Part shown: piece by piece, positions 43,743 to 60,694 of the stretch
Layout of the letters: each line of letters starts with the position of its first letter
How positions within the stretch are numbered: position 1 is the stretch's first letter
Source: a virus
Lineage: Duplodnaviria; Caudoviricetes
Virus record (IMG/VR): IMGVR_UViG_2898133256_000001
Location: 1-64,000 of that record
DNA length: 64,000 nucleotides
Strand: one strand, 5' to 3'
Program-made: the position numbers and the translations under genes
The notes under the pieces: model-generated
What the model saw: the letters and a program-made list of their open reading frames with translations, nothing else
Databases searched by the model: none
Told to the model about the DNA's origin: nothing

Positions 43743-43811
43743 GAGGCCAAGACGCTGCGCTCAGAATGCTCCTTTCGGAGGTCGGCACACCTCCTGCTTT
43801 TCCCCTGGGCC

Positions 43812-44033: not shown

Positions 44034-44042
44034 AAGGCCGCC

Positions 44043-44369: not shown

Positions 44370-44703
44370 TCATGGGAAATGCCCTCCCATGGCCCAGGTG
44401 AACTGGCATCCGCGACGATTCGTCTGAAGCGGGGCTTGCTCAGGTCGAACTCGATCCAGTCGAACGTTATTGGATTGCTCCAGCGCTCGACTCCACGGAG
44501 AAAGCCATCGCCTGTGTCGGCGGTTGCTGTTTCAAGAAGGATATAGTGATTTGTAATTCCTGTTTTATTGGTCATGCACGAGCCCCTCCACTGGGGCTCA
44601 CCTAGATCTTGTTAGGAGTCGTTCCGAGGGACCTAAGCGCCTCTGTCTCTTGTTTTTGGCTTGGTCAGATGGGCTGCAACGAGGCCTCGCTTCGAAGTGC
44701 TGC

Positions 44704-44732
44704 CGGACCCCGTCCACCATGCCGGCGACGCT
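44704..44732 (+). promoter_or_regulatory. Phage promoter-like motif, copy before gpM
   Basis: CGGACCCCGTCC-N10-CGACGCT, 7 nt before ATG 44740. Confidence 0.6.
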
Positions 44733-44739
44733 GTTGGGC

Positions 44740-45327
44740 ATGGAGCGCTTCCCCCACGTGCCGGACTACGGCGCCCAGCAGCAGACTCAGCCGCGTGTCC
44801 TGAAGGCTCAGTTCGGTGACGGCTATGCCCAGCGCTCGGAGGACGGCATGCGTACTGTCCTCCCGCGCTGGGCTCTCCAGTTCAACGCCCGCCGGAAGGT
44901 GGATGCCGACGCCATCGAGGCCTTTCTCCAGGCCCGGAGGGGCGTGGAGCCCTTCGAGTTCGTCGTGCCGTCCAGCGCCTGGGACGTCACCGGCTTCCCG
45001 GTGGGCACCGGGGACGGGGTGCGCACGCAGTACCTCCTCGAGCGGCCCGTGTCTCCGGAGGTGCCCGACGAGCGGGTGCCGGCGACTGGCTGGACGGCAC
45101 CTCCGCAGGTGTACCGGAACGGGGTGCTCCTATCCGCGGGCGTGGACTACGTGCTCTCCAGCTCCGGACTTGTCACCTTCGCCGCTGCCCCAGTGCTTGG
45201 TGCGGCGCTCACCTTCACGGCCAAGGGCGAGCGTGTAGCGCGCGTCGTCTGCGAGAGCTGGTCGTCCACGGCGAAGGGCTTCAACTCGCACGACGTCAGC
45301 GCCGAGTTCCAGGAGGCGGTGGGGTAA
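44740..45327 (+). CDS. Lambda gpM-like distal tail protein with inserted domain
   Basis: PRVL..QFGDGYAQR..DG, I.AFL..R.G..PF, AEFQE; insert GTGDG...VYRNG...VTF. Confidence 0.85.
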   Translation: MERFPHVPDYGAQQQTQPRVLKAQFGDGYAQRSEDGMRTVLPRWALQFNARRKVDADAIEAFLQARRGVEPFEFVVPSSAWDVTGFPVGTGDGVRTQYLLERPVSPEVPDERVPATGWTAPPQVYRNGVLLSAGVDYVLSSSGLVTFAAAPVLGAALTFTAKGERVARVVCESWSSTAKGFNSHDVSAEFQEAVG

Positions 45328-45446
45328 GGCGTGTTCTTACCTGGGATCGCTAGCCGCCTCACTATTTCAATGGGTAATGTAAATATATAGCATTTGCCCT
45401 CGCCGGGGCGCGTAGCCACTAAGGGCATCACGGCCACGCGCGTAGC

Positions 45447-46502
45447 TCAGAGTCCAGATTTGAGTGCTTTGGTGGGGGTTGGGCCAAAGGGTTCAAAGTT
45501 CATTGTCGACATCAGTGTTGCTGCTTTGAGGCGTTTGGCGAACAGGAAGGGCATGAAGGCATCGCTGAAATTTGAGCGACGGGTGACAGGAAACAAGATG
45601 CGCCAGTGGGCGGAACGGCCGTATTCGGTAGGCTCATCGCGCTCGATGAAATCCATTTCGGAAAGGAGTCGCAAGTCTCCTTCTGTGTCTGCCAGTTGGA
45701 CCTTGCGGTTTACGAGGTCGTAGTTCACGCGAGCCGAACGGCCAGGCTCGAGTGTGGCTGATGTCTGGTCTATAAGCCAGCCATAGAGTTCTCTGGTTAG
45801 ACGAGGCAGGAAACTTAGCTTTGTAATGAATTCGTCCAGTCTGTCGCGGGCGTCATCCACGCTTGTGAAGAGACTTTCGGTCGTTTCATCACTGAAGAAG
45901 ATGGTTGCATCCGATCGGATTACTGTTGGCATGGGTTCGACGAAATCAGCGATTGTGGTCGCGTATCCGCCTCCTGGCAGTCGTGGTTCGAGTTCAATGC
46001 GAATTCGAGCCTGCTCGTTTGCTACCTTTCTATGAACGGACTGAAGCGTTGTAATGTCTAGGCCCAGGATCTCGCGGCCCAGGTCGGTCATGTCGACCAC
46101 ATTTTTGCTTGTGAAGTTCAGAGCTGAGGCGGCGTCCGGGTCAAGATCGTACTTTGCTTTCTTTTCCCCAATGATGAGCACGAAAACCGTCTTGAACTTG
46201 GTGCGCTGCTCGTCTGTTATCTTCTTTAGTGTGGAGTTGATCTTTGTGGCGTCCGAGCGTGAGGTGATTTGAAATGCTATCTTTTCTGTTTCGTCGCCAA
46301 GATCGAGCCCTGGCTCGTTGCTCCGATCTGCATTTAGGTTCGTGAGATTGATCCCACGAACAAGGTTCAGGACATCTCGGAAGAAGTTCTCAAGTACTCC
46401 GTTTAAGTCAGTTTGACCCAGCGCACACCGCGCTCTGACTTGGCTGGCAATGGCGTCTAGGTCGTCGATGACTTGGCCCACAAAGAAACCCCTGCTTGAC
46501 AT
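45447..46502 (-). CDS. SMEK-domain protein (nuclease-like, candidate defence moron)
   Basis: DLN..LENFF.D.LN......L.NLN....N.PG.DLGD....IA.QITS....KI..TL.K; GGAGG RBS; low GC. Confidence 0.8.
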   Translation of the reverse strand: MSSRGFFVGQVIDDLDAIASQVRARCALGQTDLNGVLENFFRDVLNLVRGINLTNLNADRSNEPGLDLGDETEKIAFQITSRSDATKINSTLKKITDEQRTKFKTVFVLIIGEKKAKYDLDPDAASALNFTSKNVVDMTDLGREILGLDITTLQSVHRKVANEQARIRIELEPRLPGGGYATTIADFVEPMPTVIRSDATIFFSDETTESLFTSVDDARDRLDEFITKLSFLPRLTRELYGWLIDQTSATLEPGRSARVNYDLVNRKVQLADTEGDLRLLSEMDFIERDEPTEYGRSAHWRILFPVTRRSNFSDAFMPFLFAKRLKAATLMSTMNFEPFGPTPTKALKSGL

Positions 46503-46750
46503 TGGTCCTCCAGGCCTGCATGGAATCGCCTACTCTATGATCGTTGCGATGGGACAGTATATGTTCTCTTGGTCTCGGGATGACAAGGTGTCCACCGCTC
46601 TTGCGCTACCGTCATCCGAATGGGTTGGTCCATGTTGATCGAGGTGATCATTCATTGGGCGCCGTTCGCTGGAGATAGCGACGGTTATTCCTAAGTCGAG
46701 GCCGCGCGAATCTTTCGGGTGATGCGAGTTGGTAGCGAACCGCGCTCCAA

Positions 46751-46779
46751 CGGACGGCGTCCACCGCCCGGGCGAAGAG
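46751..46779 (+). promoter_or_regulatory. Phage promoter-like motif, copy before gpL
   Basis: CGGACGGCGTCC-N10-CGAAGAG. Confidence 0.45.
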
Positions 46780-46865
46780 GGAAGGATGGACCACCACGCT
46801 CTTGTCGCCGCGCTTTTCGCTGCTTCTGCCTTCGGCGCCGCTACCGCGCGGGCAAGGGGCGCCTT

Positions 46866-47561
46866 GTGAGCATCGCCGAGGACATCCAGAAGTTGGAGCC
46901 AGGCGCCCTGGTGGAGCTCTTCGTCCTTGACGCGTCGTCCATCCCCGGAGGCGGCATCAGCCACTTCCACGCGGGCACTAACGGTCTGGGCGGGCCCGTG
47001 GTGTGGCAGGGCGCCTCGTACCAGCCCTGGCCCGTGCAGGCCCGCGGCTTCGAGAAGTCGGGCACCGGGCGCTTTCCCCGGCCCACGCTCACCATGGCCA
47101 ACCTCCAGGGCACGCTGGGGGCCCTCGCTCGGGACTGCAACGACCTGCTCGGTGCTCGCGTCATCCGCAAGCGCACCTTCGTCCGCTACCTGGACGCGGT
47201 GAACTTCCCCGGTGGCGTCAACCCCACCGCGAGCCCGTCCGAGGGCTTCCCGGACGACGAGTTCGTCGTGGATGCGAAGACGACGGAGAACAAGCACCTC
47301 ATCGAGTTCACCCTCGCGGCGCGGTGTGACCTGGAGGGTGTCCGCATCCCCCTCCGCGTCATCACCCAGATGTGCGGGTGGCAGTACCGAGGGGAGGGGT
47401 GTGGCTATGCTGGGCCTCCAGTGGCTCGGGCCGATGACTCGCCGACGTCCAGCCACATCGAGGACAGGTGCGGGAAGCGCCTCTCAAGCTGCAAGGCGCG
47501 CTTCGGGGCTACGGCCGTTCTTCCGTACGGGGGCTTTCCGGGCGTGGGATTGCTCCGGTGA
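46866..47561 (+). CDS. Lambda gpL-like tail tip protein
   Basis: VWQG..Y.PWP...GFE, RPTL..AN, RKRTFVRYLDAVNF, C.W.YRGEGCGY, D.CGKRLSSCK.RFG, GGFPG. Confidence 0.95.
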   Translation: MSIAEDIQKLEPGALVELFVLDASSIPGGGISHFHAGTNGLGGPVVWQGASYQPWPVQARGFEKSGTGRFPRPTLTMANLQGTLGALARDCNDLLGARVIRKRTFVRYLDAVNFPGGVNPTASPSEGFPDDEFVVDAKTTENKHLIEFTLAARCDLEGVRIPLRVITQMCGWQYRGEGCGYAGPPVARADDSPTSSHIEDRCGKRLSSCKARFGATAVLPYGGFPGVGLLR

Positions 47562-47655
47562 CGACTGCCCATGTCGTTCCAAACTAACGCCGAGCAGATG
47601 TACGCTTGGTTGTTTCGCAATGCGTCGGATCGAAAGCGGCCGCTGTACGCGGACT

Positions 47656-48237
47656 TCAATGTTGACACGGGCCGCCATGCTGAGCGAGCGACTCAGGAGT
47701 GGGCGGAGGACGGGACTCTATAGGTGTGGAGGGAAGAAGGTTCGCTGGTGTCTTTGGAGATGCTTCTACTGGTGTGTTTAGAGGTGGAATTGGTGGCTTG
47801 CCTACACGCCCGAGCACAACGATTCCAAGCAAGAGGTAGGCAGCGAACAAGAAGTAGATCTTCCCGTGGTAGGGAATTTTGATCAGCAGGCGTGCATTTC
47901 CAATTGGGATGACCTGCAAGTCCTTCTTTTCTGCTTGGTTTAGGTGATAGCCATAAATCTTGGCAGCAACTACGTACTGAAGAAAATCCAGCGCCAGGGC
48001 GACGACGACGAGAAAACAAGAAAAGAGCAACCCGCCCCGTAGTCCTCCGAGGCTCTGGTCTGCCACGACCCAAATGATTGCGACCGCTCCAAGAGCTAGC
48101 GTCCGAACGTTCTCGCTAGCCCGACCTGTATATGCGTCGTACTCCTTGGCAAGTAGGTCGACATCCATTTCTTCGCTAGCGTGTGGGGTTGCGCTAGTGC
48201 TGGGAGTAGATGGTTGCCCAGATGAGGGCGTGCTCAT
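47656..48237 (-). CDS. Three-TM membrane protein, last gene of AAA/S8 cassette
   Basis: ASENVRTLALGAVAIIW, LALDFLQY, KIYFLF; coupled by TGATG overlap. Confidence 0.75.
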   Translation of the reverse strand: MSTPSSGQPSTPSTSATPHASEEMDVDLLAKEYDAYTGRASENVRTLALGAVAIIWVVADQSLGGLRGGLLFSCFLVVVALALDFLQYVVAAKIYGYHLNQAEKKDLQVIPIGNARLLIKIPYHGKIYFLFAAYLLLGIVVLGRVGKPPIPPLNTPVEASPKTPANLLPSTPIESRPPPTPESLAQHGGPCQH

Positions 48238-48410
48238 CAGGTGCTCCTTCGCGGCAGTTTCTTCTTGGGCCCACCAGTTCGAACCTTGACTTTTTCGGCC
48301 GACTTACCGGTGGTTCTCTTGCCGAGAGCTCTTTTCTTCAGCGCAGGTTTCTTCGAGGTTCCTCTTTTTTTGACTGTCTTCGTAGGTGCTGACTTCTTCT
48401 TGGTCGCCAC
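48237..48410 (-). CDS. 57-aa Lys/Arg-rich peptide (absent from ORF track)
   Basis: AAAGGAG SD, GTG start, MATKKKSAPTKTVKKRGTSKKPALKKR...; stop overlaps next ATG. Confidence 0.7.
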   Translation of the reverse strand: MATKKKSAPTKTVKKRGTSKKPALKKRALGKRTTGKSAEKVKVRTGGPKKKLPRRST

Positions 48411-48505
48411 GCAATTTCTCCTTTGGGTGCTGTTTGGCTGGAAGGATGCAGCGTTGCTTTATTGCAGGGAAGTCATGCGGGGCTGGCCTGTTGATGCCGC
48501 GCCGA

Positions 48506-50881
48506 CTATGCGCTTGTTATGATACGAACAGGCAGGTGGGTCGCAATTGGGGATAGAATCCGGAACTGCTGTCGGACTAGGTCGTAAAGTGGAACGTTCG
48601 CGTCCGCGCGTATGGTTGCCACCATGGTCATATTTAGGGGAGGTACTTTCCTGGTGAGTCCTCCGTCGTCACGGCTTGTATGTATGAGGTCTAGCCGCGG
48701 CAGGTAGAGGTCAGAGGCGCTGAAGCGAACGCGACCCCGGAGGATTGTTTCCCATTTGCCTGCTGCTCGGCGGGAGCTCTCATGGCCAGATTTCAGCCGA
48801 TTTGAATGGGCTTTCGGAGCGTAGCTGATTGTCCATCCATCGAGGACTAGTTGTTCGGTGTCGATCTTGTCGAGCCTCACGTCCATGGATTCGTCTTTTC
48901 GTGTTGCAGAGCGAATCAGGTCGTGAGGTCGAAAGATTTCTTCGATACTGCTCAGTGTGTAGTCCGTCGCATCCGACGGGTCGATTTTGGATGTGAATGC
49001 TATCGTCCAATCGATTTCGATGGTTGTGAACTCGTCAATGCCGGTGCGTGGTACGGGCAGCCGCATTGCAACGACTTCGTCCCGTGCGAGCGTGTCTTGG
49101 TAGATGACGCTCACCTCATGTGGTGCGCATGCGAAGATTTCGTTGTATGAGCTAGGTATGCGGCCGAAGCCTAGTTCGATGGAATTGTGCCCGCGCTGTG
49201 CGCGCTCGGAAAAGTGGGCACTGAAGGAACGAATGGCTGAAGGGGTTGTTCGTTTCTTCCCTAGAATTGTGCCAAGTTGAACCGCTCCGCGCATCGCTAG
49301 TGGCGACGCAAGGCTTGTCCCTGCGGATTCGACGTAGCGGCCGCGCTGATCAAGTCCACCAAAAGGCAGTTCGTCACATCCGCCAAAGGCAACGCAAATA
49401 GGTTGAACACGCTGGCCAGCACGCCCTGGACCAATGGCGCTGTAGCTGGCTCGAACGGCTTTTTTGCCTGCGTGCGTGCTTGTCGCACCAATGGCCAGTC
49501 CGTTTACCATGTCGCCAGGGACTTGGACTCTATTGAAGCCGAGCTTGCCGTCTTCGTTGCCATTGTTTCCCGCAGCAAGGAAAAACGTAACGCCCAATTC
49601 TTCGGCTAGAGTGTCGAGCTGCGAAGTCCAGTAATGAGGGTCGCCGTCGTCAACAACTTCATCGGGACCGAGACTTAGGTTTACAAACTTGTATTTGCGC
49701 TCGCGGACTGTGTTCTTGATGGAGTCGAGGCATTGATACAGGCCGTGGTCGAATTTGGTCGACGGGGCAAGGGGAAGGACGCGAAAATGATCAACATAGG
49801 CTACAGGCGTTTGGAGGACTGTGTCGGTAGGCGCAATGTGGCCAAAGAGGAAAGCACTTGTTACCATCGAGCCATGTCTCATATCCTCACTTGTCGGAGC
49901 GGCCGTAGTTAGGTCTTCGGCCGTCACGAATGGTTGGAGGTAAGGACTCAGCTGATTAATGCCTCCGTCGAAGATCGCCACTCGCTCATTTGTAAGAGGC
50001 CGTGCATCTGCGGCTGGAGGAGTTGGTCTCTTAGAGGAGCTTGCAGTTCGTCGGAACGTCGGCCGATACGGTCGAATCGACGGCATCGGTCGAATGGCTC
50101 GCACGAGGTTGAATCGCGCGGCCTCATGTATTGCTTCCGCGTGAAGTGCGATGGGGACAAATATGACGCCGCCTAGTTCTCTACGGAATTCGATGTCAAC
50201 ATCTCCATCGAGGTCCCGTATGTGCTTGACCCAGCGTAGGAATGCCTCTGGTTCCAGGTCTGACCGCTCATTCTTGTTGCGCCCGATCGGATTGAGGACG
50301 GTCTCCCACGTGATGACTTCGCCATCTCCAAGAGCCACCTTAGGGGCTTTGACGATGTCGTCTGGAGTGGCCAAGCGGATTTCCGAGAGTTCGCGTAGCT
50401 TGCTCCATTCGGGGTCCTTCTCTCCAACGGGCCTGCGCATTGCTGCGTTCGCGAAGCTGAGGACGTGAGCGGGGTCGCCTGCAATTAGGATTGTCTTGGT
50501 TGGAGCGTCGTCTTTTTGTTTCTTCTTTGTTTTGAGGACGCCCGTTGCTTGGCGAGTTCCGACCGGATAGAGGCTATGTGCCTCAAGCAATGCAGTTGGA
50601 AAATATGAGGGCGCCAAGTAGTTTGGAAGCAGGGTTGCTTCGAAGACAATATGGCGCGCTCTTAATGCTTGTGGCATTTTCGTTACTGCTTTTGCTAGTG
50701 ACCCTGCCTGTGGTGCCAGCAGTGCATGAGCTTCGGCTAAAGTGTGTGGATGGAACTTGGGGCGACCGCCCTGCGCGATCGTGACAACCTCCCTTAGATG
50801 TTCCCCTCCACCCAATAGTGGGCGCCGAACTTCTGGGCCGCCGCGACCACCACTTCCCTTTCCATCATTGCTTTTTTCCAT
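48506..50881 (-). CDS. S8 subtilisin-like serine protease (IetS-like)
   Basis: IFDGG (Asp), HGSMV (His), AAGN, GTSLASP (Ser); no signal peptide. Confidence 0.92.
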   Translation of the reverse strand: MEKSNDGKGSGGRGGPEVRRPLLGGGEHLREVVTIAQGGRPKFHPHTLAEAHALLAPQAGSLAKAVTKMPQALRARHIVFEATLLPNYLAPSYFPTALLEAHSLYPVGTRQATGVLKTKKKQKDDAPTKTILIAGDPAHVLSFANAAMRRPVGEKDPEWSKLRELSEIRLATPDDIVKAPKVALGDGEVITWETVLNPIGRNKNERSDLEPEAFLRWVKHIRDLDGDVDIEFRRELGGVIFVPIALHAEAIHEAARFNLVRAIRPMPSIRPYRPTFRRTASSSKRPTPPAADARPLTNERVAIFDGGINQLSPYLQPFVTAEDLTTAAPTSEDMRHGSMVTSAFLFGHIAPTDTVLQTPVAYVDHFRVLPLAPSTKFDHGLYQCLDSIKNTVRERKYKFVNLSLGPDEVVDDGDPHYWTSQLDTLAEELGVTFFLAAGNNGNEDGKLGFNRVQVPGDMVNGLAIGATSTHAGKKAVRASYSAIGPGRAGQRVQPICVAFGGCDELPFGGLDQRGRYVESAGTSLASPLAMRGAVQLGTILGKKRTTPSAIRSFSAHFSERAQRGHNSIELGFGRIPSSYNEIFACAPHEVSVIYQDTLARDEVVAMRLPVPRTGIDEFTTIEIDWTIAFTSKIDPSDATDYTLSSIEEIFRPHDLIRSATRKDESMDVRLDKIDTEQLVLDGWTISYAPKAHSNRLKSGHESSRRAAGKWETILRGRVRFSASDLYLPRLDLIHTSRDDGGLTRKVPPLNMTMVATIRADANVPLYDLVRQQFRILSPIATHLPVRIITSA

Positions 50882-52070
50882 TCGACTGTGCCCCCGCTTT
50901 TCTCTTTGGCCTGAGGTCTTGCCCGCTGGTTGAGTTGGTGGTTGCCCAGTGCCGTATGTATTTTCCTACAGTGACGTGGGATACGTCTAGATGCTGCGCG
51001 ATCTCGCGCTGCGTCATGCCGAGCATGGCGTTGGCCAAGCCAGCATAGGAAATGCGTTGTGCCTCCGACCCGCGCTTCAAATAGTTCAGCGCGCGTGCTG
51101 TGAGAATCGGTGTCAGGTGTGGGTCATTTCCGACTACGAAATCTCGAATGGCTTCAGAGGTTAGTCTTCCTATGTCGGAGCCTGACATTCCGGTGGTCGC
51201 AATTGCAAGTGTGGTGACGTCTCCGTCAGCTAGCGACTGGTTGTGAGTTGCTAGCGTCCGTATGAGAATTGCGTGGCGAAGAGCGAGGTCTGGGAGGGGC
51301 AAGCTGAGAGTCCGTTCGAAACGTCGCCACACTGCTCGGTCGAGAAGTTCAGGATGGTTTGTCGCGGCAACGAGTAGCCCCGTTGGAGGCCACCGGTCGA
51401 TTTCCTGCAGCAGGACGTTGACGATCCTCTTTAGCTCGCCAACATCGCTGTCATCGTCTCGGCGCTTGGCGAGGGCGTCGAACTCGTCGAGAAAGAGGAC
51501 TGACCTGTTTCGCTGGCCGAAGTTCAGGGCTTGCCGCAAGTTCTGCCCAGTTTTCCCTAACAGGGAAGAGACTAGGGCCGCCAAGTCTACGGTGAAAAGT
51601 GGCCATCCGATCTGGGCAGCAAGGTATCTCGCCGTCATCGTCTTTCCGACCCCGGGGGCGCCCGTGAGTAGAAGTGTTCGAGTTGGCTCTAGCCCGGCGG
51701 CTTGGAGGACTTGTGGGCGCTTTCTCTCGGCTACCACCTGCTGGACCACTCGCTCGACGTCGTTCGGAAGGAACGGTGACGGAGCCTCATCTGCTTCGTC
51801 GACATGGACTAGGGGGAAGAAGGAGGAGTCATCGACGGGGGGCGATTCCCGACTGATGTGATGTGTGCGGCCATCATTTGAGCGTCGAAGACTCCTGGAC
51901 GGCTCCGACTCGCTCAGCAGAGGGACTAGAAGTTCACGGAGCCTGACCTCATCTGGGGACTGTTTGTCGGAAGCCTTGGTGAGCCGGGAGGCGAGGCGGC
52001 GGATGGATGCTTGGTCGCCTAGGAGTCCGAGCCGAACGAGGTCGGCGATCATCTGAATGAAGTCCGTCAT
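50865..52070 (-). CDS. AAA+ ATPase (IetA-like) with C-terminal HTH
   Basis: GAPGVGKT, LFLDEFD, ATNHPELLDRAVWRRF; MTQREIAQHLDVSHVTVGKY; start uncertain (52070 or 52127). Confidence 0.92.
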   Translation of the reverse strand: MTDFIQMIADLVRLGLLGDQASIRRLASRLTKASDKQSPDEVRLRELLVPLLSESEPSRSLRRSNDGRTHHISRESPPVDDSSFFPLVHVDEADEAPSPFLPNDVERVVQQVVAERKRPQVLQAAGLEPTRTLLLTGAPGVGKTMTARYLAAQIGWPLFTVDLAALVSSLLGKTGQNLRQALNFGQRNRSVLFLDEFDALAKRRDDDSDVGELKRIVNVLLQEIDRWPPTGLLVAATNHPELLDRAVWRRFERTLSLPLPDLALRHAILIRTLATHNQSLADGDVTTLAIATTGMSGSDIGRLTSEAIRDFVVGNDPHLTPILTARALNYLKRGSEAQRISYAGLANAMLGMTQREIAQHLDVSHVTVGKYIRHWATTNSTSGQDLRPKRKAGAQSNGKKQ

Positions 52071-52164
52071 TGGTAACCCTTGGTAAGTCCTATTACCAAT
52101 GTTCACATCGTGAGCATGAAGACGCAATGACGGCGGTGGTAACCGTCGGTCTTCCTACTTACCA
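52071..52164. promoter_or_regulatory. Two palindromic operator-like sites TGGTAA-N16-TTACCA
   Basis: 52071-52098 and 52137-52164, with similar spacers. Confidence 0.6.
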
Positions 52165-52278: not shown

Positions 52279-53010
52279 ATGTCCCCCGTAGTCACGCCCG
52301 AGTTCTCCTCGGCCGCTGTCGCCTCCGCTGTTGCGCATGCCCGCGCGGATTTTCCTCGCGAGTCCTGCGGGTTGGTGGTGCGCGTCGCGGGAGAGCTGGT
52401 CTATCGGCCCTGCCGGAACCTCGCTGCGGGCCAAGCCCACTTCCACCTTGCGCCAGAGGACTTCGCGAGCGCCGAATCAGCAGGCGAGGTGGTGGCGGTG
52501 GTGCACTCCCACCCTAACGCCTCCCCGGAGCCGAGCGAGGCGGACCGCGTGATGTGCGAGCGCTGGGGCCTACCCTGGCTCATCATCAACGTGCCGGTGG
52601 GGCACTGGCAGGTGCTGTACCCCTCGGGCTACCGCGCGCCGTTGCTGGGCCGGGAGTTCTCCCACGGCGTCCTGGACTGCTTCTCCCTCATCCGCGACTA
52701 CTACCGCGAGACGCTGGGCCTGGAGCTGCCCGACTTTGAGCGCCCCGACGACTGGTGGGCTAAGGGCGGGAACCTCTACCTGGAGGGCTACGAGAAGGCG
52801 GGCTTCGTCGACGTGACGGGCTCGCCGCTGCGCGAGCACGACGTCCTCCTCATGCAGCTCCGGGCGAAGGTGCCCAACCACGCGGGCGTCTACTTGGGCG
52901 CGGACGTCGTCCTCCACCACCTCCAGGCTTCGCTCTCCAAGAGGGAGACGTACAGCGGCTTCTGGGCACGGGTGACTCGGAAGGTTGTGCGGCATCGCAC
53001 CCTATGCTGA
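52279..53010 (+). CDS. Lambda gpK-like tail tip assembly protein (JAB + NlpC/P60)
   Basis: PRESCGL, VHSHP...PSEAD; LLGR.F.HG..DC..LIRDYY, PNHAGVY. Confidence 0.95.
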   Translation: MSPVVTPEFSSAAVASAVAHARADFPRESCGLVVRVAGELVYRPCRNLAAGQAHFHLAPEDFASAESAGEVVAVVHSHPNASPEPSEADRVMCERWGLPWLIINVPVGHWQVLYPSGYRAPLLGREFSHGVLDCFSLIRDYYRETLGLELPDFERPDDWWAKGGNLYLEGYEKAGFVDVTGSPLREHDVLLMQLRAKVPNHAGVYLGADVVLHHLQASLSKRETYSGFWARVTRKVVRHRTLC

Positions 53011-54080
53011 CGACGGTGGTGCTCGGCGGGCCCCTGGGAGCTCGCTTCGGGCGGGAGTGGAAGCTGGAGCTGGGAGTGCCCTCGCCCGCGGAGGCGGTGC
53101 GGGCCCTCTGCGCGGTGTGCGCGGGCTTCAGCCGCTACCTCGCGGAGAACAGCGCGCCCGGCTACCACGTCCTCGTCGGCGAGCGCGATGTCGGCGCCAA
53201 GGAGCTGGGCGTCGTCACGGGCGAGAAGCGCATCACCATTCTCCCGGCCCTGGCGGGCGCGAAGCAGGCGGGTGTCCTCCAGGTGGTGCTGGGCGCGGTG
53301 CTCATCGCCGGCGGCGCGGTTCTCTCCGTCTACGACTACGGCGCGGTGGGCGGACAGCTCATCGCCCTGGGCAGCAGCCTCGTGGTGGGCGGCGCCGCGC
53401 AGCTCCTCTTCAAGCCGCCCTCGGCCACGGGCCCGCTGGAGAAGCCCGACACCCAGCCCAACTACGTCTTCAACGGGCCGGTGAACACGCTGGCCCAGGG
53501 CCACCCGGTGGCCCTCTGCTACGGCGAAATGGTGGTGGGGAGTTGCGTGGTGTCCGCTGGCATCTCCACCGAGTGGAGCGCGGGCGGCGGCTTCGGCGGC
53601 TCCGGGAGTGGCCAGCACGGCCCGGGTGGGCAGGGGCCCGTGGGCGGAGGGTGCCCGGCGCCGTGGGTGCCCATTCTCCTCTCGGACGGCCGCGAGGTGC
53701 ACGCGGGTGACGTGCGCGTGGGCGCGTGGGTGCGCACCCAGGACGAGGTGACGCTGGAGTGGGGCGACTACCCCGTCTCCCACGTCTCCACCCTGGAGGC
53801 GGAGTGCTGGCGCCTGGTGCTGGAGGACGGCCGGGAGCTGGTGGGCACCTACAACCACCGGGTGCGCACGGAGGCCGACTGGGTGGAGCTGCGCCACCTG
53901 GACGCGGGCATGCGCCTCGTCGGCGAGCGACCCGGCGTGGTGGCCCGCGCGGAGGCGGCCGGGCGCGGCCCCGTGGTGCGCATCACCGTGGCGGGCGCGC
54001 ACACGTACCAGACGGTGGGCTTCCTCTCGCACAACACCAAGAACGAGGACCCGGAGCGGCCCCATGACGAAGCACCTTGA
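53004..54080 (+). CDS. Lambda gpI-like tail assembly protein fused to C-terminal Hint domain
   Basis: L.G.LG.RFGR, EAVRAL, Y.FNGPVNT.AQG.PV...YG...VGS.V.SAGI; then Gly linker, CPAPW...TYNH...LSHN-T. Confidence 0.92.
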   Translation: MLTTVVLGGPLGARFGREWKLELGVPSPAEAVRALCAVCAGFSRYLAENSAPGYHVLVGERDVGAKELGVVTGEKRITILPALAGAKQAGVLQVVLGAVLIAGGAVLSVYDYGAVGGQLIALGSSLVVGGAAQLLFKPPSATGPLEKPDTQPNYVFNGPVNTLAQGHPVALCYGEMVVGSCVVSAGISTEWSAGGGFGGSGSGQHGPGGQGPVGGGCPAPWVPILLSDGREVHAGDVRVGAWVRTQDEVTLEWGDYPVSHVSTLEAECWRLVLEDGRELVGTYNHRVRTEADWVELRHLDAGMRLVGERPGVVARAEAAGRGPVVRITVAGAHTYQTVGFLSHNTKNEDPERPHDEAP

Positions 54081-56583
54081 GCGGGGGGCGCTGCGAGGCG
54101 CGGGCGGGGGAAGCGGAGGGAAGGGCGGAGGCGACGCCCAGCGCTCGCCTGTGGAGTCCCCGGACACGCTGAAGTCCGCCGCGCACGCGCGCGTGCTGGA
54201 CGTGTTGTGCGAGGGGGAAATCGAAGGACTCGTCGGTGGGCTGAAGGGCGTCTTCCTGGACGGCGTCCCGGTTCACACCATCAACGACGCGCCCAACTTC
54301 CGCGACGTCACCGTGTACGACGTCCCGGGCACCCAGGGGCAGGAGTACATCCCTGGCTTCACCGCGGCGGAGGCGGAGTTCAACGTCAACGCGGAGGTGA
54401 AGAAGAACCTGCCGGCCGTCCGCACCATCTTCGATGCGGAGGTGGACGCGGTGCGCGTCACGCTGCAGGTGCCGCAGTTGACGTTCCAGCACCCCGAGAC
54501 GGGGGACTTGCAGCCGTCCACCCTCAACGTCGCCATCGACGTGCAGAGCAACGGCGGTGGTTGGGTGGAGCAGGACCTGCAGGGCGCGGGCGTCATCCGA
54601 GGGAAGTGCACCAGCCCCTACGAGAGGACGTACCGCGTGGAGCTCACCGGCAGCCCGCCGTGGGACATCCGCGTGCGGCGCCTCACGCCGGACTCCGACA
54701 CCGTCGCCCTCCAGAACCGTACGTTCTGGAAGTCCTACGCGACGTTGATTGACGAGAAGCTGAGCTTCCCGAACACCGCCATCGTGGCCCTCGAGGTGTC
54801 GGCCCGGCAGTTCGGCAGCGTGCCCACGCGCAGCTACCGGATTCGCGGGCTGAAGGTGAAGGTGCCCAGCAACTACAACCCAGCGACGCGCGAGTACTCG
54901 GGTACGTGGGACGGCACCTTCCAGGTGGCGTGGACGGACAACCCGGCGTGGTGCCTGTACGACTTGTTGACGACGAAGCGGTACGGCCTGGGGCGCTATC
55001 TGGACGAGGCCCAGGTGGACAAGTGGGGCCTGTACACGGTGGCCCGCTACTGCGACGAGCTGGTGCCGGACGGCAAGGGCGGCATGGAGCCGCGCTTCAC
55101 CTGCAACCTCTACCTCCAGACGCAGGCGGAGGCGTACCAGGTGGTGGGCAACCTCGCCTCCATCTTCAGAGGACTCGTCTACTGGGCCAGCGGCGCGGTG
55201 TACGTGGCCCAGGACGCGCCCCGGGACGCGGAGTACCTCTTCACGCCCTCCAACGTGGTGGACGGCCTCTTCACCTACTCGGGCACCTCGCGGCGCGCGC
55301 GGCACACCGTGGCGTTGGTGACGTGGAATGACCCCGGCAACCAGTACAAGGCTGCGGTGGAGCACGTGCCGGACGAGGAGGGGATGCTCGACTACGGCTA
55401 CAACCCCACGGACGTGGTGGCGCTGGGGTGCACCTCGCGCAGCCAGGCGCAGCGGGTGGGCCGGTGGCTGCTGCACACCGAGCGGCTGGAGACGGAGACG
55501 GTGGTGTTCCGCACGGGCATGGAAGGCGCCCTGCGCAACCCCGGCGCCGTCGTGAAGGTGGTGGACCCGACGCGCGCGGGACGGCGCTGGGGCGGGCGGG
55601 TGGTGGAGGCCACCGCGTCGCACGTGGAGCTGGACGCGGACGTCACCCTCGAGGCTGGGAACACGTACACCCTCTCCGTGGTGCTGCCCGACGGCACGGT
55701 GGAGGAGCGGCCGGTGGCGACCCTGCCGGCGGCGCCCTACCGCGCCCTCACGCTGGCCGCGCCGTTCTCCGCCGCGCCCGTGGCCCAAGCCGTCTGGGTG
55801 CTGGCGGCGAATGACTTGGTGCCCACCCTCTGGCGCGTGCTGGCCGTCGCCGAGGTGGAGCCGCACGTCTTCGAGGTGACGGCGCTGGCGCACCACCCGG
55901 GCAAGTACGCCGCAGTGGAGCAGGGGGTGAAGCTCCAGCCGCTGCCCACCTCCGTGCTGCCCTCGTCATCCCCACCCGAGGGGCTGGTGGTGGGGGAGGG
56001 GCTCTACAAGACGACAAACGGCGGGGTGCGGGTGCAGCTCAACGCGCGGTGGACGCAGCGGCCCGGCGCCGTCGCGTACGTCGTGCGCTGGCGCCTGTCC
56101 GAGGGCAACTGGAGTGCCGAGGACCGCCTCCAGACGCACTTCTGGGAGCTGGCGGACGTGGCGCCGGGGCCGTACCGGGTGCAGGTGGCGGCCGAGCTGG
56201 GAGGCTTCACCACCGCGTTCAGCGAGGCGGCGTACACCGTACTGGGCAAGGCGGCGCCCCCGTCGGACGTGGCGGGCTTCCAGTGCACGCTCAACGGCAA
56301 CACCGTCACGCTTCGGTGGGCGGAAATCCCGGACCTCGACAGGGACATGTACGAGCTGCGGTATGGGGGCTCGAGCTGGGAGACGGCCTCCCTCATCGCC
56401 AAGGTGCGCGCCACCTCCTTCGAGTGGGCCCTGCCGGCGCTCGGCGTCAACCAGGTGGTGCGCCTCAAGGCCATCGACACCACCGGGAACTACTCCACCA
56501 ACGCAGTCAGCCTCACGGTGGTGGCGGCGCCCACGGTGCCGTCCTCCATCACCATGACGGTGTCCTCGACGCCGCCGGCCTAG
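54064..56583 (+). CDS. Lambda gpJ-like tail tip/host specificity protein (ends after FN3 domains)
   Basis: EGEIEG, W.IRVRR.T.D, GLKVKVPSNYNP, WDGTF..AWTDNPAW, EPRFTCN, GCTSRSQA.R.GRW. Confidence 0.95.
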   Translation: MTKHLERGALRGAGGGSGGKGGGDAQRSPVESPDTLKSAAHARVLDVLCEGEIEGLVGGLKGVFLDGVPVHTINDAPNFRDVTVYDVPGTQGQEYIPGFTAAEAEFNVNAEVKKNLPAVRTIFDAEVDAVRVTLQVPQLTFQHPETGDLQPSTLNVAIDVQSNGGGWVEQDLQGAGVIRGKCTSPYERTYRVELTGSPPWDIRVRRLTPDSDTVALQNRTFWKSYATLIDEKLSFPNTAIVALEVSARQFGSVPTRSYRIRGLKVKVPSNYNPATREYSGTWDGTFQVAWTDNPAWCLYDLLTTKRYGLGRYLDEAQVDKWGLYTVARYCDELVPDGKGGMEPRFTCNLYLQTQAEAYQVVGNLASIFRGLVYWASGAVYVAQDAPRDAEYLFTPSNVVDGLFTYSGTSRRARHTVALVTWNDPGNQYKAAVEHVPDEEGMLDYGYNPTDVVALGCTSRSQAQRVGRWLLHTERLETETVVFRTGMEGALRNPGAVVKVVDPTRAGRRWGGRVVEATASHVELDADVTLEAGNTYTLSVVLPDGTVEERPVATLPAAPYRALTLAAPFSAAPVAQAVWVLAANDLVPTLWRVLAVAEVEPHVFEVTALAHHPGKYAAVEQGVKLQPLPTSVLPSSSPPEGLVVGEGLYKTTNGGVRVQLNARWTQRPGAVAYVVRWRLSEGNWSAEDRLQTHFWELADVAPGPYRVQVAAELGGFTTAFSEAAYTVLGKAAPPSDVAGFQCTLNGNTVTLRWAEIPDLDRDMYELRYGGSSWETASLIAKVRATSFEWALPALGVNQVVRLKAIDTTGNYSTNAVSLTVVAAPTVPSSITMTVSSTPPA

Positions 56584-56594
56584 CGGGACTCACC

Positions 56595-58697
56595 ATGCGC
56601 TCACGCGAGCAGGAAATGCAGGGCGGCATTGTCGAGGACGGAGAGCCGGGCCAGCCGCGCCCGCGCGTCATCAAACCGAAGTACCTCGACATCCGCTGGA
56701 CGCATGAGGAGACGCTTCCCGCCCACCTCCTGGAAGGCTTCCAGGTGGCAGTCTTCACGGGGAACGACCCGAACAACGCTGACGCCTACCTCGTTGAGCC
56801 CAAGCGCGTAGGGCCTGCGGAGCGCCGCGTGGTGGTGACGCTGCGGGTGACGTCCACCACGAGCGCGAAGTGCGCGGTGCAGGCTCTCTACGCCAACGGC
56901 AACCAGGGAAGCTGGAGGGTGCTGGGCGGCACCGTGGTGGCGGACCCGGATACCCTCACGGTGGCGACGCAGACGCTGTCCAACGTGCCCGACGGCAGCG
57001 TCGACACCGGCCTCCTGAGCCCGGGGGCGGTGACGTCCAGCAAGGTGGCGCCGGCCGCCATCGCCACGCAGCACCTGCTGCTGCCGCCCTCGGACAACCT
57101 GGTGCCCAACGGCTACGGCGAGGCGGGCACCGCTGCGCTGGGGAACTCTCCGGAGGGGGACTTCCTCGTGGAGGAGCCGGCCAACGCGAAGGAGGGCCGG
57201 TGGTGCCGCAGGGTGCCTCTCAACGCGGCCGGGTACCGCACCGCTGTCTGGACGAAGCGGATTTCCTGCGCGGCGGGCGACGAGTTCTCCGCGGAGGCGT
57301 GGTTGAAGTCGTCCGCGCCGCTGTCGGGCAACCAGGGGGGAGGGCTGTACTTCTTCTGGTTGGACGCCTCGGGCAACTACGCGGGTGCCAACACCCTCAC
57401 GGTGGTGTCGGGACTCACCACCGCGTACCAGCGGTACAAGGTGAAGGGGGCGTGCCCGGCCGGGTGCACTGGCCTCCTGCTCGTCTGGGAGCTCAACGCG
57501 GCCGCCGCGGATATCGGCAAGGCGGTGTACCTGGACGCCATCAGCTTGCGGAAGTCGGTGACGTTCGACTTGCTGAGCGCCAACACGTTGCAGACGTCCA
57601 ACTACGCGGAGGACGGCAGCGGAGTGCCCGTCGCGGGCGCGAAGCTGGACAACGTGGGCGTGGCGCTGAAGGTGGCCAGCCAGAATCTCCAGGTGGGCCG
57701 CTACCCGCTCGAGGCGCTCTTCTACAAGGGGCTGGTGACGTTGGACGGGCCGGGGCCCGGCAACCGCTGCTTCTATCGTGGCAACAACCAGGGCGCGGTG
57801 CGCGGCGGCGCGCCCAACATCGACCGCGTGCGGGTGGAGTGCGCGGACAACATCACCACCGCGTCCCTCTCCTGGGCGACGTGGCAGATCTTCCTCCAGC
57901 CCCAGGCGCTGGACGACAACTTCGACGCCATGAGGTACGCGCGCGTGGAGCTGTGGGTGCGGCCGACTGCTGGAAGTGCATTCCGTCACCAGGTGCTGCA
58001 CGTCGCGCTGACGGACAGGGTGTACCGGGACGCCACCGAGTCCTCGGCGAACAATGAGGGCCGCGCGAGCTGGAGCTACATGTTCTCGGGCTCGGCATCC
58101 GCACTCAGCACCTCGGCGACGTCCGTCTGGTACCTGCTGGTGTCCGTCGTCAACGCGTACGGGGCGAGCGCCTCGAAGTGGTTCGTGCCGGCCGCCGGCC
58201 GCAACGCGGCCTTCGCCTCCCAGTACAACTCGCCGGTGGGTGGCGGCGTCGACGGCGGCGGCGGTGGCGGTGGCAGCGACGGGGGCGGGTACTGCCCCGC
58301 GCCGTGGGAGCCCATCCTCATGGAGGACGGGAGCGAGCTGCCGGCGGAGCTGGTGCGGCCCGGCATGCGCGTCCTCACCCAGCACGAGACGTCCCTGAAG
58401 CTGGACGCCTACCAGGTGGCCGCCGTGCAGCGCGCCCGCGCGCATTGGCACCGGCTGACGCTGGAGGACGGGCGCTCTGTCGTGGCCTCCAGCCTCCACC
58501 CCCTCTTCGTCGACGGCGCCGGCTGGACGGCGCTCTCGGCGCTGCGCGCGGGGGACACGCTGCTCGGCTCCCGGCCTGGCCGAGTGGTGGGCGTCGAAGC
58601 GGTGGGAGAGGGCGACGTCGTGCGCCTCACCGTCCACGGGGCCCGCACCTACAACGTGCAGGGCCTGCTGTCACACAACGCGAAGCCCCGCGAGTAG
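56595..58697 (+). CDS. Tail fibre/receptor-binding protein with carbohydrate-binding-like domain and C-terminal Hint domain
   Basis: FN3-like start, NLVPNG.GE..CBM-like module, Gly linker, CPAPW...LSHN-A. Confidence 0.82.
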   Translation: MRSREQEMQGGIVEDGEPGQPRPRVIKPKYLDIRWTHEETLPAHLLEGFQVAVFTGNDPNNADAYLVEPKRVGPAERRVVVTLRVTSTTSAKCAVQALYANGNQGSWRVLGGTVVADPDTLTVATQTLSNVPDGSVDTGLLSPGAVTSSKVAPAAIATQHLLLPPSDNLVPNGYGEAGTAALGNSPEGDFLVEEPANAKEGRWCRRVPLNAAGYRTAVWTKRISCAAGDEFSAEAWLKSSAPLSGNQGGGLYFFWLDASGNYAGANTLTVVSGLTTAYQRYKVKGACPAGCTGLLLVWELNAAAADIGKAVYLDAISLRKSVTFDLLSANTLQTSNYAEDGSGVPVAGAKLDNVGVALKVASQNLQVGRYPLEALFYKGLVTLDGPGPGNRCFYRGNNQGAVRGGAPNIDRVRVECADNITTASLSWATWQIFLQPQALDDNFDAMRYARVELWVRPTAGSAFRHQVLHVALTDRVYRDATESSANNEGRASWSYMFSGSASALSTSATSVWYLLVSVVNAYGASASKWFVPAAGRNAAFASQYNSPVGGGVDGGGGGGGSDGGGYCPAPWEPILMEDGSELPAELVRPGMRVLTQHETSLKLDAYQVAAVQRARAHWHRLTLEDGRSVVASSLHPLFVDGAGWTALSALRAGDTLLGSRPGRVVGVEAVGEGDVVRLTVHGARTYNVQGLLSHNAKPRE

Positions 58698-58727: not shown

Positions 58728-59261
58728 ATGTCCCTGACGTCCTCAGAGGTGTACCAGCGCAATGCCGTCGAGTCCCGCAAGCGCGACGTGTCGTGCGCGC
58801 TGGCCCGCGTGCGCGGAGAGCTCGACGCCGCGGGCGCCTCCGCCCGGCACTTCGCCACCGTCGGCCAGGGGCTCCAGGTGCGCCGCGCGGAGCTGGAGGG
58901 CGAGATGCAGGCACTGGCGGCCAGCGGCGTCGCCGGGCTCACCGACGATTGGGGCAAGTACAGCGCGCTCGAGCTGGCGGCCCAGGAGGAGCGCTACCCC
59001 GCCAAGGCCCTCGCCTACGACTGGCTGGTGGCGCACCCGACGGCCACCTTCCTGGAGACGGCGGGCGAACTGGAGCGCCTCATGCTGGAGGCGCGCACCG
59101 CGGCGGGCCGGCCCTGGCTGCTGTGGCGCGCGGACGGGCTGCTGCGCGAGTGGCAGGCCAACGCGGTTGCCCGGGGGCACGTCGCCGGCAACACGTGGGA
59201 AGCGTTTCGGGACTACCTCCTCGTCATCGGGAAGGATGCTGCCCTCGGGGGCATGTTGTGA
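58728..59261 (+). CDS. Hypothetical protein after tail fibre (possible chaperone)
   Basis: AGGAG RBS, backbone codon usage. Confidence 0.6.
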   Translation: MSLTSSEVYQRNAVESRKRDVSCALARVRGELDAAGASARHFATVGQGLQVRRAELEGEMQALAASGVAGLTDDWGKYSALELAAQEERYPAKALAYDWLVAHPTATFLETAGELERLMLEARTAAGRPWLLWRADGLLREWQANAVARGHVAGNTWEAFRDYLLVIGKDAALGGML

Positions 59262-59378: not shown

Positions 59379-60113
59379 ATGCCTCTCGGCACGTGGGAAC
59401 GGACGCTTCCGGTCAGAACCTCGAAGGGGTGGCCCGAGCCCGCGAAGTGGCAGCCGTGCGCGTTCTGCGGAAAGCCAGCGCATGCTCTGGCGGAGGCGCC
59501 CGGGTCGAACGACGGCAACTCCGGGACGCTGAGTAGGAACATCCTCAATGGAGCGGAGCCTGAATCGCACCCGTGGTTCACGGGCTCCTACTCGATTGCG
59601 GCGCACCACCTCATCTGCTCGGAGTCGATGAGCGGTGATGAGGACTGGGCCTGCATCTGCTGGTACTTCGGGTACGACATCAATGGACCGAAGAACGGCG
59701 TGTTCCTGCCGTCGGTGCCCTCGGTGGCGTGCGAGCTCCACGTCCCAGTTCACCGCGGCCCGCACTTCGGTGGCTGGGCCTACGACATGGACCTCTCGTA
59801 TCCCGAGGCGGTGATGGAACTACTGGAGGGCTATGCCGAGTCGGCGCGTCGCGGGCGCTACTGTGGCAATCCTTCCGGGCTGGGCAGCGACCTTGATGGG
59901 CTCAGCGGCACCATCCTGCGCAAGGTGGCGACCGGACGGTGGACCATCACCACCGACGGCCTCGACTACCAGGCTGGGGGGAACGGCTGCTCTGGGGTGA
60001 CGAGCCTCCAGGGGAAGCCGCCGCTGCCCTGTCCACGTGGGCGGCGCCACGGCTCGCGACACGGGACGACAAGGAAGCCTCTCGCTCGCCGTACGCTTCA
60101 GGTGGGGGCCTAG
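59379..60113 (+). CDS. AHH-family (HNH/EndoVII) nuclease toxin
   Basis: IAAHHLI, YDIN...NGVFLP, HRGPH...Y; start uncertain. Confidence 0.85.
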   Translation: MPLGTWERTLPVRTSKGWPEPAKWQPCAFCGKPAHALAEAPGSNDGNSGTLSRNILNGAEPESHPWFTGSYSIAAHHLICSESMSGDEDWACICWYFGYDINGPKNGVFLPSVPSVACELHVPVHRGPHFGGWAYDMDLSYPEAVMELLEGYAESARRGRYCGNPSGLGSDLDGLSGTILRKVATGRWTITTDGLDYQAGGNGCSGVTSLQGKPPLPCPRGRRHGSRHGTTRKPLARRTLQVGA

Positions 60114-60115
60114 TC

Positions 60116-60694
60116 GTGCAGCGCGAGTACTTCGTTCTGAAGCGAGCGCGCTCCCAAGAGCACCCGCTGCTTGCGTGGGCGCAGTCTGCGGCAGCGTTCC
60201 GCAAGGGCGGCAAGGTCGCAGAAGACGTGCCTGTGCAGCTCCGCCTTGGTGAGCCCGAGCCGTCCAGACCAATCATGGTCGACCACCACAGTCTGCCGGC
60301 CCCCGTCGTTTCGCCGCGACTGAAGACGGTCCTGGAGTCTGCGAAGCTCGAGGGAGTCCAGTTCGTGCCGGCGGACGTTCACGTGCGCGACTCGGTGCTC
60401 CGTTATTGGCTGGTCCACATGTGGCGGCGAATCGCCTGTATGGACCCGGAGCGCTCGGTCTACGAGCGGTCGCCGAGCGGCGCCACGCTGATGGGATTGG
60501 ACCGCCTGGTGCTCGACGAGTCTGTTCTCGGCGACATCCCGGTGGAAGAGCGACTGGCCTTCCGTCTCGACGAAGCGGTTGTCCACCTCTTCCATCGTTC
60601 GGTGGTGGAGCAAGTGCTTTCGATGTCGCCTCCACCGGAGGGGCTGCGGTTCATCCCGGTGGAAGAGTGGAACGACTCCTCGGCATTCCGGTGA
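60116..60694 (+). CDS. Imm11/DUF1629-like immunity protein
   Basis: VVSPRLK.VL, GVQFVP, Y......I.C.D.ERS, LVLDE, FRL, GLRFIPV; 2 nt after toxin. Confidence 0.8.
   Translation: MQREYFVLKRARSQEHPLLAWAQSAAAFRKGGKVAEDVPVQLRLGEPEPSRPIMVDHHSLPAPVVSPRLKTVLESAKLEGVQFVPADVHVRDSVLRYWLVHMWRRIACMDPERSVYERSPSGATLMGLDRLVLDESVLGDIPVEERLAFRLDEAVVHLFHRSVVEQVLSMSPPPEGLRFIPVEEWNDSSAFR

Follow-up and report, generated by a model that had tools for sequence, protein, structure and literature searches.

Why should two proteins of the same phage tail, the plug protein gpI and the distal fibre of a Myxococcus prophage, both end in a small domain that resembles an intein? In the window (the whole stretch of DNA analysed, 64,000 nucleotides, positions 1 to 64,000 of the IMG/VR record IMGVR_UViG_2898133256_000001), each of the two proteins is capped C-terminally by a Hint domain that is predicted to be catalytically intact. 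We suggest, with a probability of roughly 0.55, that the module is a self-excising C-terminal cap, i.e., a transient appendage, so that the Hint domain would be removed from the finished tail. All genes discussed below are on the + strand.

The gpI gene (53004-54080) is identified by the K-I-J gene order and by the match of residues 2-190 to phrog_32, "tail assembly protein" (PHROG search, E 5.8e-53), which agrees with the identity proposed earlier from sequence. The gene for a gpK-like tail protein that has a JAB and an NlpC/P60 domain lies directly upstream (52279-53010; Pfam Prok-JAB E 1.2e-18, NLPC_P60 E 9.6e-13; phrog_30 E 1.3e-113) and overlaps the start of gpI. The 3' end of gpI in turn overlaps the start of the gene for a gpJ-like central tail fibre/hub protein of 839 residues (54064-56583; Pfam FNIII-A_GpJ E 1.7e-39, Phage-tail_3 E 1.9e-24; phrog_31 E 2.5e-284), which is without a Hint domain. 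By comparison with lambda, the gpI body (residues 1-193, 53004-53582) contains a ubiquitin-like N-terminal domain, hydrophobic helices and the TAPI-C plug region, and these 193 residues correspond to a full gpI. However, lambda gpI (TAPI; Iyer et al. 2006, PMC1779556) ends after TAPI-C, and so do the 74 proteobacterial gpI loci examined, all of which lack the Hint domain; the cap is therefore not a general requirement of gpI.

In the window, a Gly-rich linker (residues 194-216, 53583-53651) follows the gpI body, with GGG just before Cys217; G214 and G215 are invariant in an alignment of 12 gpI-Hint proteins. The Hint domain itself (53652-54035) runs from Cys217 (codon 53652-53654) to Asn344 (54033-54035) and contains Cys1, a T-x-x-H block B (T-Y-N-H, with its His at 53856-53858), an A-H-T-Y block F and an S-H-N end, and is supported by profile and fold. 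Only 14 residues, Thr345, Lys346 and then an acidic/Pro-rich stretch, remain before the stop codon (54078-54080), together covering 54036-54080. Lys346 is invariant among the aligned gpI orthologues, while residue 345 is variable. The Hint domain comes after TAPI-C and not after the ubiquitin-like domain, which is located about 130 residues further upstream with TAPI-C in between.

The distal fibre gene (56595-58697) has the same arrangement. Its body (residues 1-548, 56595-58238), delimited by comparison with related loci, matched no family in either Pfam or PHROG, and a ubiquitin-like domain is absent from the protein. The N-terminal 132 residues form an anchor that is common even to the Hint-less fibre of Myxococcus sp. 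Y35 (L004), and the distal domain (about residues 133-545) is always accompanied by the Hint domain in the homologues compared. After a Gly-rich linker (residues 549-566, 58239-58292) with GGGY just before Cys567, the Hint domain (58293-58679) extends from Cys567 (codon 58293-58295) to Asn695 (58677-58679), with Cys1, an S-x-x-H block B (S-S-L-H), A-R-T-Y and S-H-N, and matches the family HMM at E 1.8e-47. It is followed by the five-residue tail AKPRE, with Ala at +1, and the stop codon (58695-58697), spanning 58680-58697. The length and the Lys of this x-K-(P/Q)-R-(D/E) tail are conserved throughout the fibre family. Translation reproduces exactly the linkers, Cys1, T/SxxH and His-Asn positions that the sequence-only reading had reported for both modules. 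Its hand-made estimate that they are about half identical is borne out as well, as BLASTP aligns them at 49% identity over 131 residues (E 2e-35), far beyond chance. With a length of 128-129 residues both are too short to hold a homing endonuclease, and none is present, as had been noted.

Pfam and NCBIfam searches with both window copies returned nothing but sub-threshold Hint/intein matches. The nearest Pfam family is PT-HINT (PF07591), the pretoxin Hint found in polymorphic toxins such as that of PDB 8W20; it scores 13.4 bits for the gpI module and 23.6 bits for the fibre module, both under its gathering cut-off of 27.7 bits. The Hint assignment is therefore taken from profile and fold evidence. 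A profile search of the PDB matched inteins and a BIL at E 2e-12 to 1e-8, with 8w20 as the best (E 2e-12). An AlphaFold2 model of the module, built with a 39-row alignment, reaches pLDDT 94 and pTM 0.86; a single-sequence model of the whole gpI has a pLDDT of 35. In a Foldseek search against the PDB, all 64 matches at E<=0.001 are inteins, BILs or Hedgehog proteins. The top match is BIL2 of Tetrahymena (6y75/6tmm; E 8e-10, TM 0.82, 16% identity), and the other best matches are mini-inteins, the Clostridium thermocellum BIL (2LWY; profile E 1.5e-8; Foldseek E 8e-8, TM 0.78-0.80) and Hedgehog. The check by Hint and BIL profiles that had been proposed earlier thus fails in Pfam and succeeds against the PDB, in profile as well as in structure. 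Judged by profile and modelled fold, both window modules are true Hint domains, with catalytic residues that are predicted to be intact.

The Hint beta-fold, the N-terminal Cys and the block-B (T/S)xxH place the module in the Hint superfamily, and within it sequence profiles put it beside PT-HINT and the A-type BIL domains. The kinship with A-type BILs is seen in motifs, the 2lwy profile and the fold: these too are mini-Hint domains of about 130 residues with Cys1, TxxH, a terminal His-Asn and usually a non-nucleophilic next residue. Like A-type BILs, the phage module avoids conserved enzyme sites and occurs where surface or secreted proteins are variable. It differs from them in its place at the extreme C-terminus of tail proteins, behind a Gly-rich linker, and in the tail of 5-14 residues, where a Lys at +1 or +2 is near-universal. 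Some members of the family do exceed the PT-HINT cut-off (P0007 with 43.7 bits, P0025 with 34.7 bits, P0024 and P0055), but the window copies do not, and no toxin domain follows them, as only 14 and 5 residues remain. They also differ from canonical class 1 inteins: the module is appended after a complete gpI and after the fibre distal domain instead of being inserted at a conserved site, and a +1 nucleophile is lacking in the fibre (Ala) and unconserved in gpI, where the Thr of the window is replaced by Leu, Val, Ala or Ile in the orthologues. The contrast drawn earlier between a splicing-competent Thr and a cleavage-only Ala consequently does not hold, as Thr or Ser is present at +1 in only 8/139 family modules. 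The Hedgehog/Hog autoprocessing class does not fit either, since there is no sterol- or adduct-recognition region and the post-Asn tails have merely 5-14 residues. Pfam Peptidase S74 is not matched, and the fold is that of Hint.

The module family comprises about 2,050 cluster representatives, mostly placed at the far C-terminal end of phage tail proteins of diverse kinds; of ten long end-capped members, eight have a match among the tail families of PHROG, and the families matched are different ones. Cys1 is found in 139/139 modules, and in the 39-row alignment, very divergent as its sequences are, neither the block-B His nor the His-Asn end varies. A Lys follows the His-Asn at +1 or +2 in 136 of the 139, while the residue preceding Cys1 varies (G 42, T 26, S 24, Y 13, A 13; n=139). 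The tail after the Asn has at most 6 residues in 53/139 and at most 20 in 83/139, so nothing functional follows the Hint domain in most members. Tandem arrays of the module are also seen in the wider family. Apart from other gpI proteins, the sequence nearest to the gpI Hint, at 61% identity, belongs to an unrelated protein of 378 residues (P0008). The context of that protein is a phage-like contig, where no informative families were found.

When 50,697 phage records were searched by tblastn, the gpI Hint had no match and the fibre Hint had only weak matches to actinophage terminase inteins (best E 4e-3, mostly >1e-2); with these two queries no carrier of the module was found among the cultured phages of that collection. 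A literature search outside subscription journals, combining Hint, intein-like or PT-HINT with phage tails, found no description of it. The module is apparently a widespread and hitherto undescribed end-module of phage tail proteins.

The sequence-only reading had proposed a twin system, and the two Hint domains do occur together, not only in the window but also in four prophages related to this one (L005, L006, L084 and L085). However, each is also found alone. In Myxococcus sp. Y35 and in a phage contig (L086), no second Hint accompanies that of gpI. Conversely, a fibre/J Hint lies beside a Hint-less gpI of 227 residues in one tail module (L083), and in another (L082), from a siphovirus whose tail genes are of another type, there is no gpI Hint. 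Each Hint is moreover complete and not split. Cooperation between the two, for instance a cross-ligation of gpI with the fibre or the action of a matched pair when the tail tip is assembled, is highly improbable; the prophage has one module in two independent instances, and these are no partners.

Within each lineage, on the other hand, the module is fixed. All 34 homologues of the fibre distal domain carry the Hint domain (34/34, down to 29% identity), and so do all full-length gpI copies (7/7) in a search of 201 Myxococcaceae genomes. Sporadic presence in close relatives, named earlier as an observation that would speak against a function, is thus not seen. The dN/dS of the Hint domain is 0.17-0.73, mostly 0.3-0.5, similar to that of the host domains, and the modules evolve under purifying selection. 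The conserved, linker-delimited placement at the C-terminus, which had been taken as a sign of domestication, fits a domesticated self-processing role. In a tree of 152 modules each window copy groups with its own orthologues, and the other gpI Hints are scattered. AU tests reject neither a single clade of all gpI Hints (p 0.17) nor a single clade of the Myxococcaceae gpI and fibre Hints (p 0.21), so we make no claim on single or multiple acquisition or on duplication within the phage.

How could such a cap work? The chemistry of BILs and inteins is established, and that of BILs is reportedly described by Amitai 2003 and Dassa 2004. By homology, gpI and the distal fibre would each be made as a precursor with a portable cassette, consisting of the Gly-rich linker, the mini-Hint and the short Lys-bearing tail. 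Cys1, aided by the block-B (T/S)xxH, would turn the linker-Cys peptide bond into a thioester, and the terminal Asn, aided by the penultimate His, would cyclise and free the short tail. Water could then resolve the thioester, or an amine of the tail could do so: the conserved Lys or, in the manner of A-type BILs, the alpha-amine of the +1 residue. By either route the Hint domain of about 14 kDa would be excised and be absent from the finished tail. The cap may keep the trimeric tail-tip proteins soluble or assembly-competent, or it may time their maturation. For gpI there is also a structural argument: residues 135-223 of lambda gpI form a trimeric plug inside the tail tip, whose strands pass gaps in gpJ (PMC10721106, PMC11101478). 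Because the C-terminal strands of the plug thread through gpJ in this way, a 14-kDa appendage on gpI would probably have to be removed. A plain hydrolytic release would leave the strong conservation of the terminal Asn, of the fixed five-residue tail and of the Lys unexplained; these features suggest that the C-junction reacts as well. The replacement of the block-F His by Arg or Lys in the fibre copies counts against the cap.

Other uses of the same chemistry have to be weighed. Hedgehog passes its thioester to cholesterol, and Tetrahymena BIL2 acts with ubiquitin-like domains. The activated end of the linker could similarly be handed to an amine. The conserved Lys in the tail of the module may accept it, which would give an isopeptide cap, and so may a Lys on some other tail protein or a nucleophile of the host surface. 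Such a thioester-driven conjugation is possible though unlikely. It would agree with BIL2 as the best structural match, with the Gly-rich linkers ahead of Cys1, with the near-universal Lys and with the conserved Asn and tail length. In BIL2, from the BUBL1 polyubiquitin-like locus (PDB 6Y75, 6TMM; Chiarini et al. 2021), a Lys amine replaces the +1 nucleophile and joins its epsilon-amine to a C-terminus by an isopeptide bond without ATP (PMC8616854). BILs of the BUBL type have a ubiquitin-like domain immediately before Cys1 and a Lys acceptor in the C-flank; gpI, too, has a ubiquitin-like domain, and a Lys is at +2 in both window copies. However, BIL2 scores only marginally above ordinary mini-inteins in Foldseek at its 16% identity, the residue before Cys1 is not fixed, and the module shows no co-variation with any acceptor partner. 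Nor does the Hint domain of gpI adjoin the ubiquitin-like domain, and the fibre has none. The more specific proposal, that the cassette of Gly linker, Hint and Lys is an enzyme-free tail protein ligase, which would carry the thioester on to an isopeptide with the conserved Lys, with an amine on the receptor side or with a Lys from an adjacent tail protein, is doubtful. If true, it would be a viral counterpart of the "ubiquitination by splicing" of BIL2 and, in gpI, would stand beside a putative ubiquitin-like/JAB pair.

The Hint domain might instead be retained in the virion as a structural or receptor-binding tip domain, with catalytic-looking residues that are structural or rarely used. The extreme distal position on the fibre, where receptor-binding domains sit, and the lost block-F His would suit this, but the catalytic positions are invariant despite strong divergence. 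Further, a receptor binder should vary fastest, while the dN/dS of the Hint domain is no higher than that of the fibre body, and the same domain caps gpI, which is inside the tip in lambda; we find retention improbable. A selfish or neutral mini-intein-like element, spreading among tail genes without benefit to the phage, could explain the many unrelated host proteins, among them the carrier of the closest relative of the gpI Hint, as well as the tandem arrays. It would hardly explain an endonuclease-free module under purifying selection that is appended at the protein end and is not sporadic within lineages. In addition, the 5-14-residue tail is conserved with the module and not with the host protein. 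Splicing would thus have nothing to restore, because this "C-extein" belongs to the module, and a selfish origin of the pattern appears quite improbable.

The self-excising cap has a functional analogy in Peptidase S74. S74 domains are intramolecular chaperones of phage tail fibres and spikes, e.g., endosialidase and T5 pb1. To our knowledge, they are the only self-removing C-terminal domains in phage fibres, acting as serine-lysine peptidases. The likeness, a C-terminal self-removing domain on trimeric fibres, does not extend to the chemistry, as S74 uses a Ser-Lys dyad and Hint a Cys thioester and Asn cyclisation, nor to the fold, which is unrelated. If the cap exists, phage tail maturation would have a second, unrelated route by the thioester chemistry of inteins and Hedgehog, and it may reach about 2,000 protein clusters, from the internal gpI plug to distal fibres. 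That gpI undergoes processing in the course of tail assembly, an old idea, would become testable at the C-terminal end. The family would also provide a natural set of tiny (128-residue), endonuclease-free Cys1/Asn Hint domains, tolerant of many different N-terminal partners behind a Gly linker and of practical interest for protein engineering.

The gene that follows the fibre, ORF177 (58728-59261), matches no Pfam family, and in the Atlas search all its scores are below 0.9. A homologue was not found in Myxococcus sp. Y35, whose fibre is without a Hint domain. ORF177 could be a fibre chaperone, which would weaken the need for a chaperone role of the Hint domain. By synteny it travels with the Hint-capped fibre cassette: homologues are located directly 3' of the Hint-capped fibres in the four related prophages and, at E 1e-51, also in the otherwise different siphovirus contig L082.

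The C-terminal modules of gpI, the tail-tip plug protein, and of the 700-aa distal fibre are Hint domains. In gpI (53004-54080, + strand), residues 2-190 match the tail-assembly-protein family phrog_32 (E 5.8e-53) and are followed by a Gly-rich linker (194-216), the module itself (Cys217-Asn344) and 14 further residues. The fibre (56595-58697, +) ends in a Gly-rich linker (549-566), the module (Cys567-Asn695) and the tail AKPRE. Common to both modules, which are 49% identical (E 2e-35), are the first residue Cys1, (T/S)xxH and S-H-N. The translated residues confirm the sequence-only reading, which had described two linker-plus-module C-termini, about half identical, with Cys1, block-B T/SxxH and a terminal His-Asn.

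That reading had also called for an HMM search for Hint and bacterial intein-like (BIL) domains. In Pfam, both window copies give PT-HINT and intein matches, all sub-threshold; the PT-HINT cut-off is passed by some members of the wider family. A profile made from 39 members of that family reaches E values of 2e-12 to 1.5e-8 against solved structures: inteins, the Hint of a polymorphic toxin (8w20) and the BIL of C. thermocellum (2lwy). AlphaFold2 with the 39-member alignment gives a model at pLDDT 94, for which Foldseek returns only Hint folds, with Tetrahymena BIL2 at the top (E 8e-10, TM 0.82), followed by gp41-1, the DnaB and RecA mini-inteins, 2lwy and Hedgehog 1at0.

Within each lineage, the module is a constant feature. 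When the distal domain of the fibre alone (residues 133-550) was used as query, all 34 homologues, with identities down to 29%, carried a C-terminal Hint, nearly always followed by a five-residue tail x-K-(P/Q)-R-(D/E). Likewise, the Hint is present in 7/7 full-length gpI proteins across 201 Myxococcaceae genomes, the window copy counted, and the sporadic occurrence in close relatives that would have spoken against a function is thus not seen. Pairwise dN/dS of the Hint (Nei-Gojobori, where high GC content may affect dS) is mostly 0.3-0.5, similar to that of the gpI and fibre bodies.

The two Hints are, however, not a twin system, as had been proposed. They occur together in the window, in Pyxidicoccus (L005), in Corallococcus (L006) and in two Myxococcus loci (L084, L085), but the survey also finds each copy without the other. 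Only gpI carries a Hint in Myxococcus sp. Y35 (L004), whose fibre shares just its first 132 residues with the window fibre and ends without one, and in the phage contig L086, where the last tail gene, a 1113-aa J, lacks it. Conversely, locus L083 has a 227-aa gpI without a Hint and a 1380-aa J terminating in the fibre domain and Hint, and the siphovirus L082, whose tail genes are of other families, has the window-type fibre domain, Hint and ORF177. At 74 beta-/gammaproteobacterial gpI loci no Hint was found within 10 kb of gpI. ORF177 (58728-59261) invariably lies 3' of the Hint-capped fibre, even in the otherwise unrelated L082 (E 1e-51); its N-terminus is coiled-coil-like, and candidate roles are a chaperone for the fibre or a second component of it.

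Searched by profile, 1.84 billion cluster representatives yield a family of 2,050 proteins at E<=0.001 (499 at E<=1e-10), to which both modules belong. Among the 139 full-length modules from the best 150 of the 2,050 matches, Cys starts every module, Lys stands at +1 in 40 and at +2 in 96 (positions counted after the terminal His-Asn), and the protein ends within 6 residues of the Asn in 53 and within 20 in 83. Of ten long members with the module as end-cap, eight have matches among the PHROG tail families, which differ from each other. The family tree has two clades, separated with 96% support: 'internal/tandem' and 'phage end-cap'; both window copies fall within the latter. Seven metagenomic members of the sister clade (P0007, P0009-P0012, P0016, P0109) have two to five tandem Hint domains, with S-H-N-K at the end of each and short spacers rich in Pro and Arg between them, a layout that recalls the polyprotein arrangement of ciliate BUBL loci. 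A third, distant Hint (Vint 31.9 bits, PT-HINT 26.8 bits) lies within an open frame of 675 aa at another genomic locus, outside the prophage (L003, G000:C91:364962-365258).

In the tree, the two window copies each group with their own orthologues. Outside gpI, the Hint closest to the gpI copy (61% identity) belongs to an unrelated protein of 378 aa. AU tests reject neither a shared origin of all gpI Hints (p 0.17) nor one of the gpI plus fibre Hints from Myxococcaceae (p 0.21). The trees tested used the window fibre, P0167 (P0005 being a cluster representative, from Myxococcus sp. K38C18041901), placed as in the family tree.

Catalysis at both junctions is suggested by Cys1, the block-B His and the terminal His-Asn, none of which varies. 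In lambda, gpI residues 135-223 form a plug trimer inside the tip, and the C-terminal strands thread gaps in gpJ (PMC10721106; PMC11101478). By analogy, a 14-kDa domain retained at the plug C-terminus would probably not fit inside the tip, and we therefore favour a predicted self-excising cap, with a probability of roughly 0.55. Thioester-driven ligation by the Hint is a live if rather unlikely rival, because plain hydrolysis gives no reason for the conserved Asn, the Lys or the fixed tail length, and the product of BIL2, the top structural match, is a Lys isopeptide (PMC8616854). Lys346 of gpI is invariant among orthologues. The Thr at +1 of the window gpI, which had been read as splicing-competent, is Leu, Val, Ala or Ile in orthologues, and a nucleophile is rare here family-wide (Thr 6/139, Ser 2/139, same best 150 matches). 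The proposal of Iyer et al. on ubiquitin-like and JAB domains deals with the gpI N-terminal domain (PMC1779556), and the present results leave it unaffected. Fibre relatives at NCBI are already annotated 'Hint domain-containing protein' and gpI relatives 'hypothetical' or 'tail assembly protein'; the literature searched yielded no paper describing Hint or BIL domains of phage tail proteins.

The source genome is 11.4 Mb with 67.5% GC, and the nearest matches of the window proteins are from Myxococcus species. The lambda-type tail-tip module spans 44.6-58.7 kb on the + strand, with gpM (44650-45327) and gpL (46719-47561) assigned by family matches, gpK with JAB and NlpC/P60 domains (52279-53010) and gpJ (54064-56583); the tape-measure gene (34381-38274) lies upstream. 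Minus-strand, low-GC (55-62%) cargo sits between the tail genes at 38300-52130: a caspase-domain gene (41515-42372), a SMEK_N gene (45447-46502), similar to PADLOC Aga_REase-PNTD, between gpM and gpL and, in the gpL-gpK gap, an IetA/IetS pair of AAA ATPase (50865-52127, PADLOC E 3e-84) and S8 subtilase (48506-50881, E 1e-37). Cargo at these junctions differs or is absent in related prophages. About 2 kb past the true end of the tape-measure gene lies a diverged second copy of its 3' end (40393-40600), which aligns to the segment of L004-L006 also matched by 38044-38274; this suggests stacked cassette insertions after the gene. Two genes beyond the fibre lies a toxin gene of the AHH nuclease family (59379-60113, Pfam E 1e-9), and after it comes the gene for an Imm11 immunity protein (60116-60694, E 1.6e-11). 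The pair is also found in L084, and it is independent of the Hint, since a toxin homologue occurs in L004, whose fibre has none.
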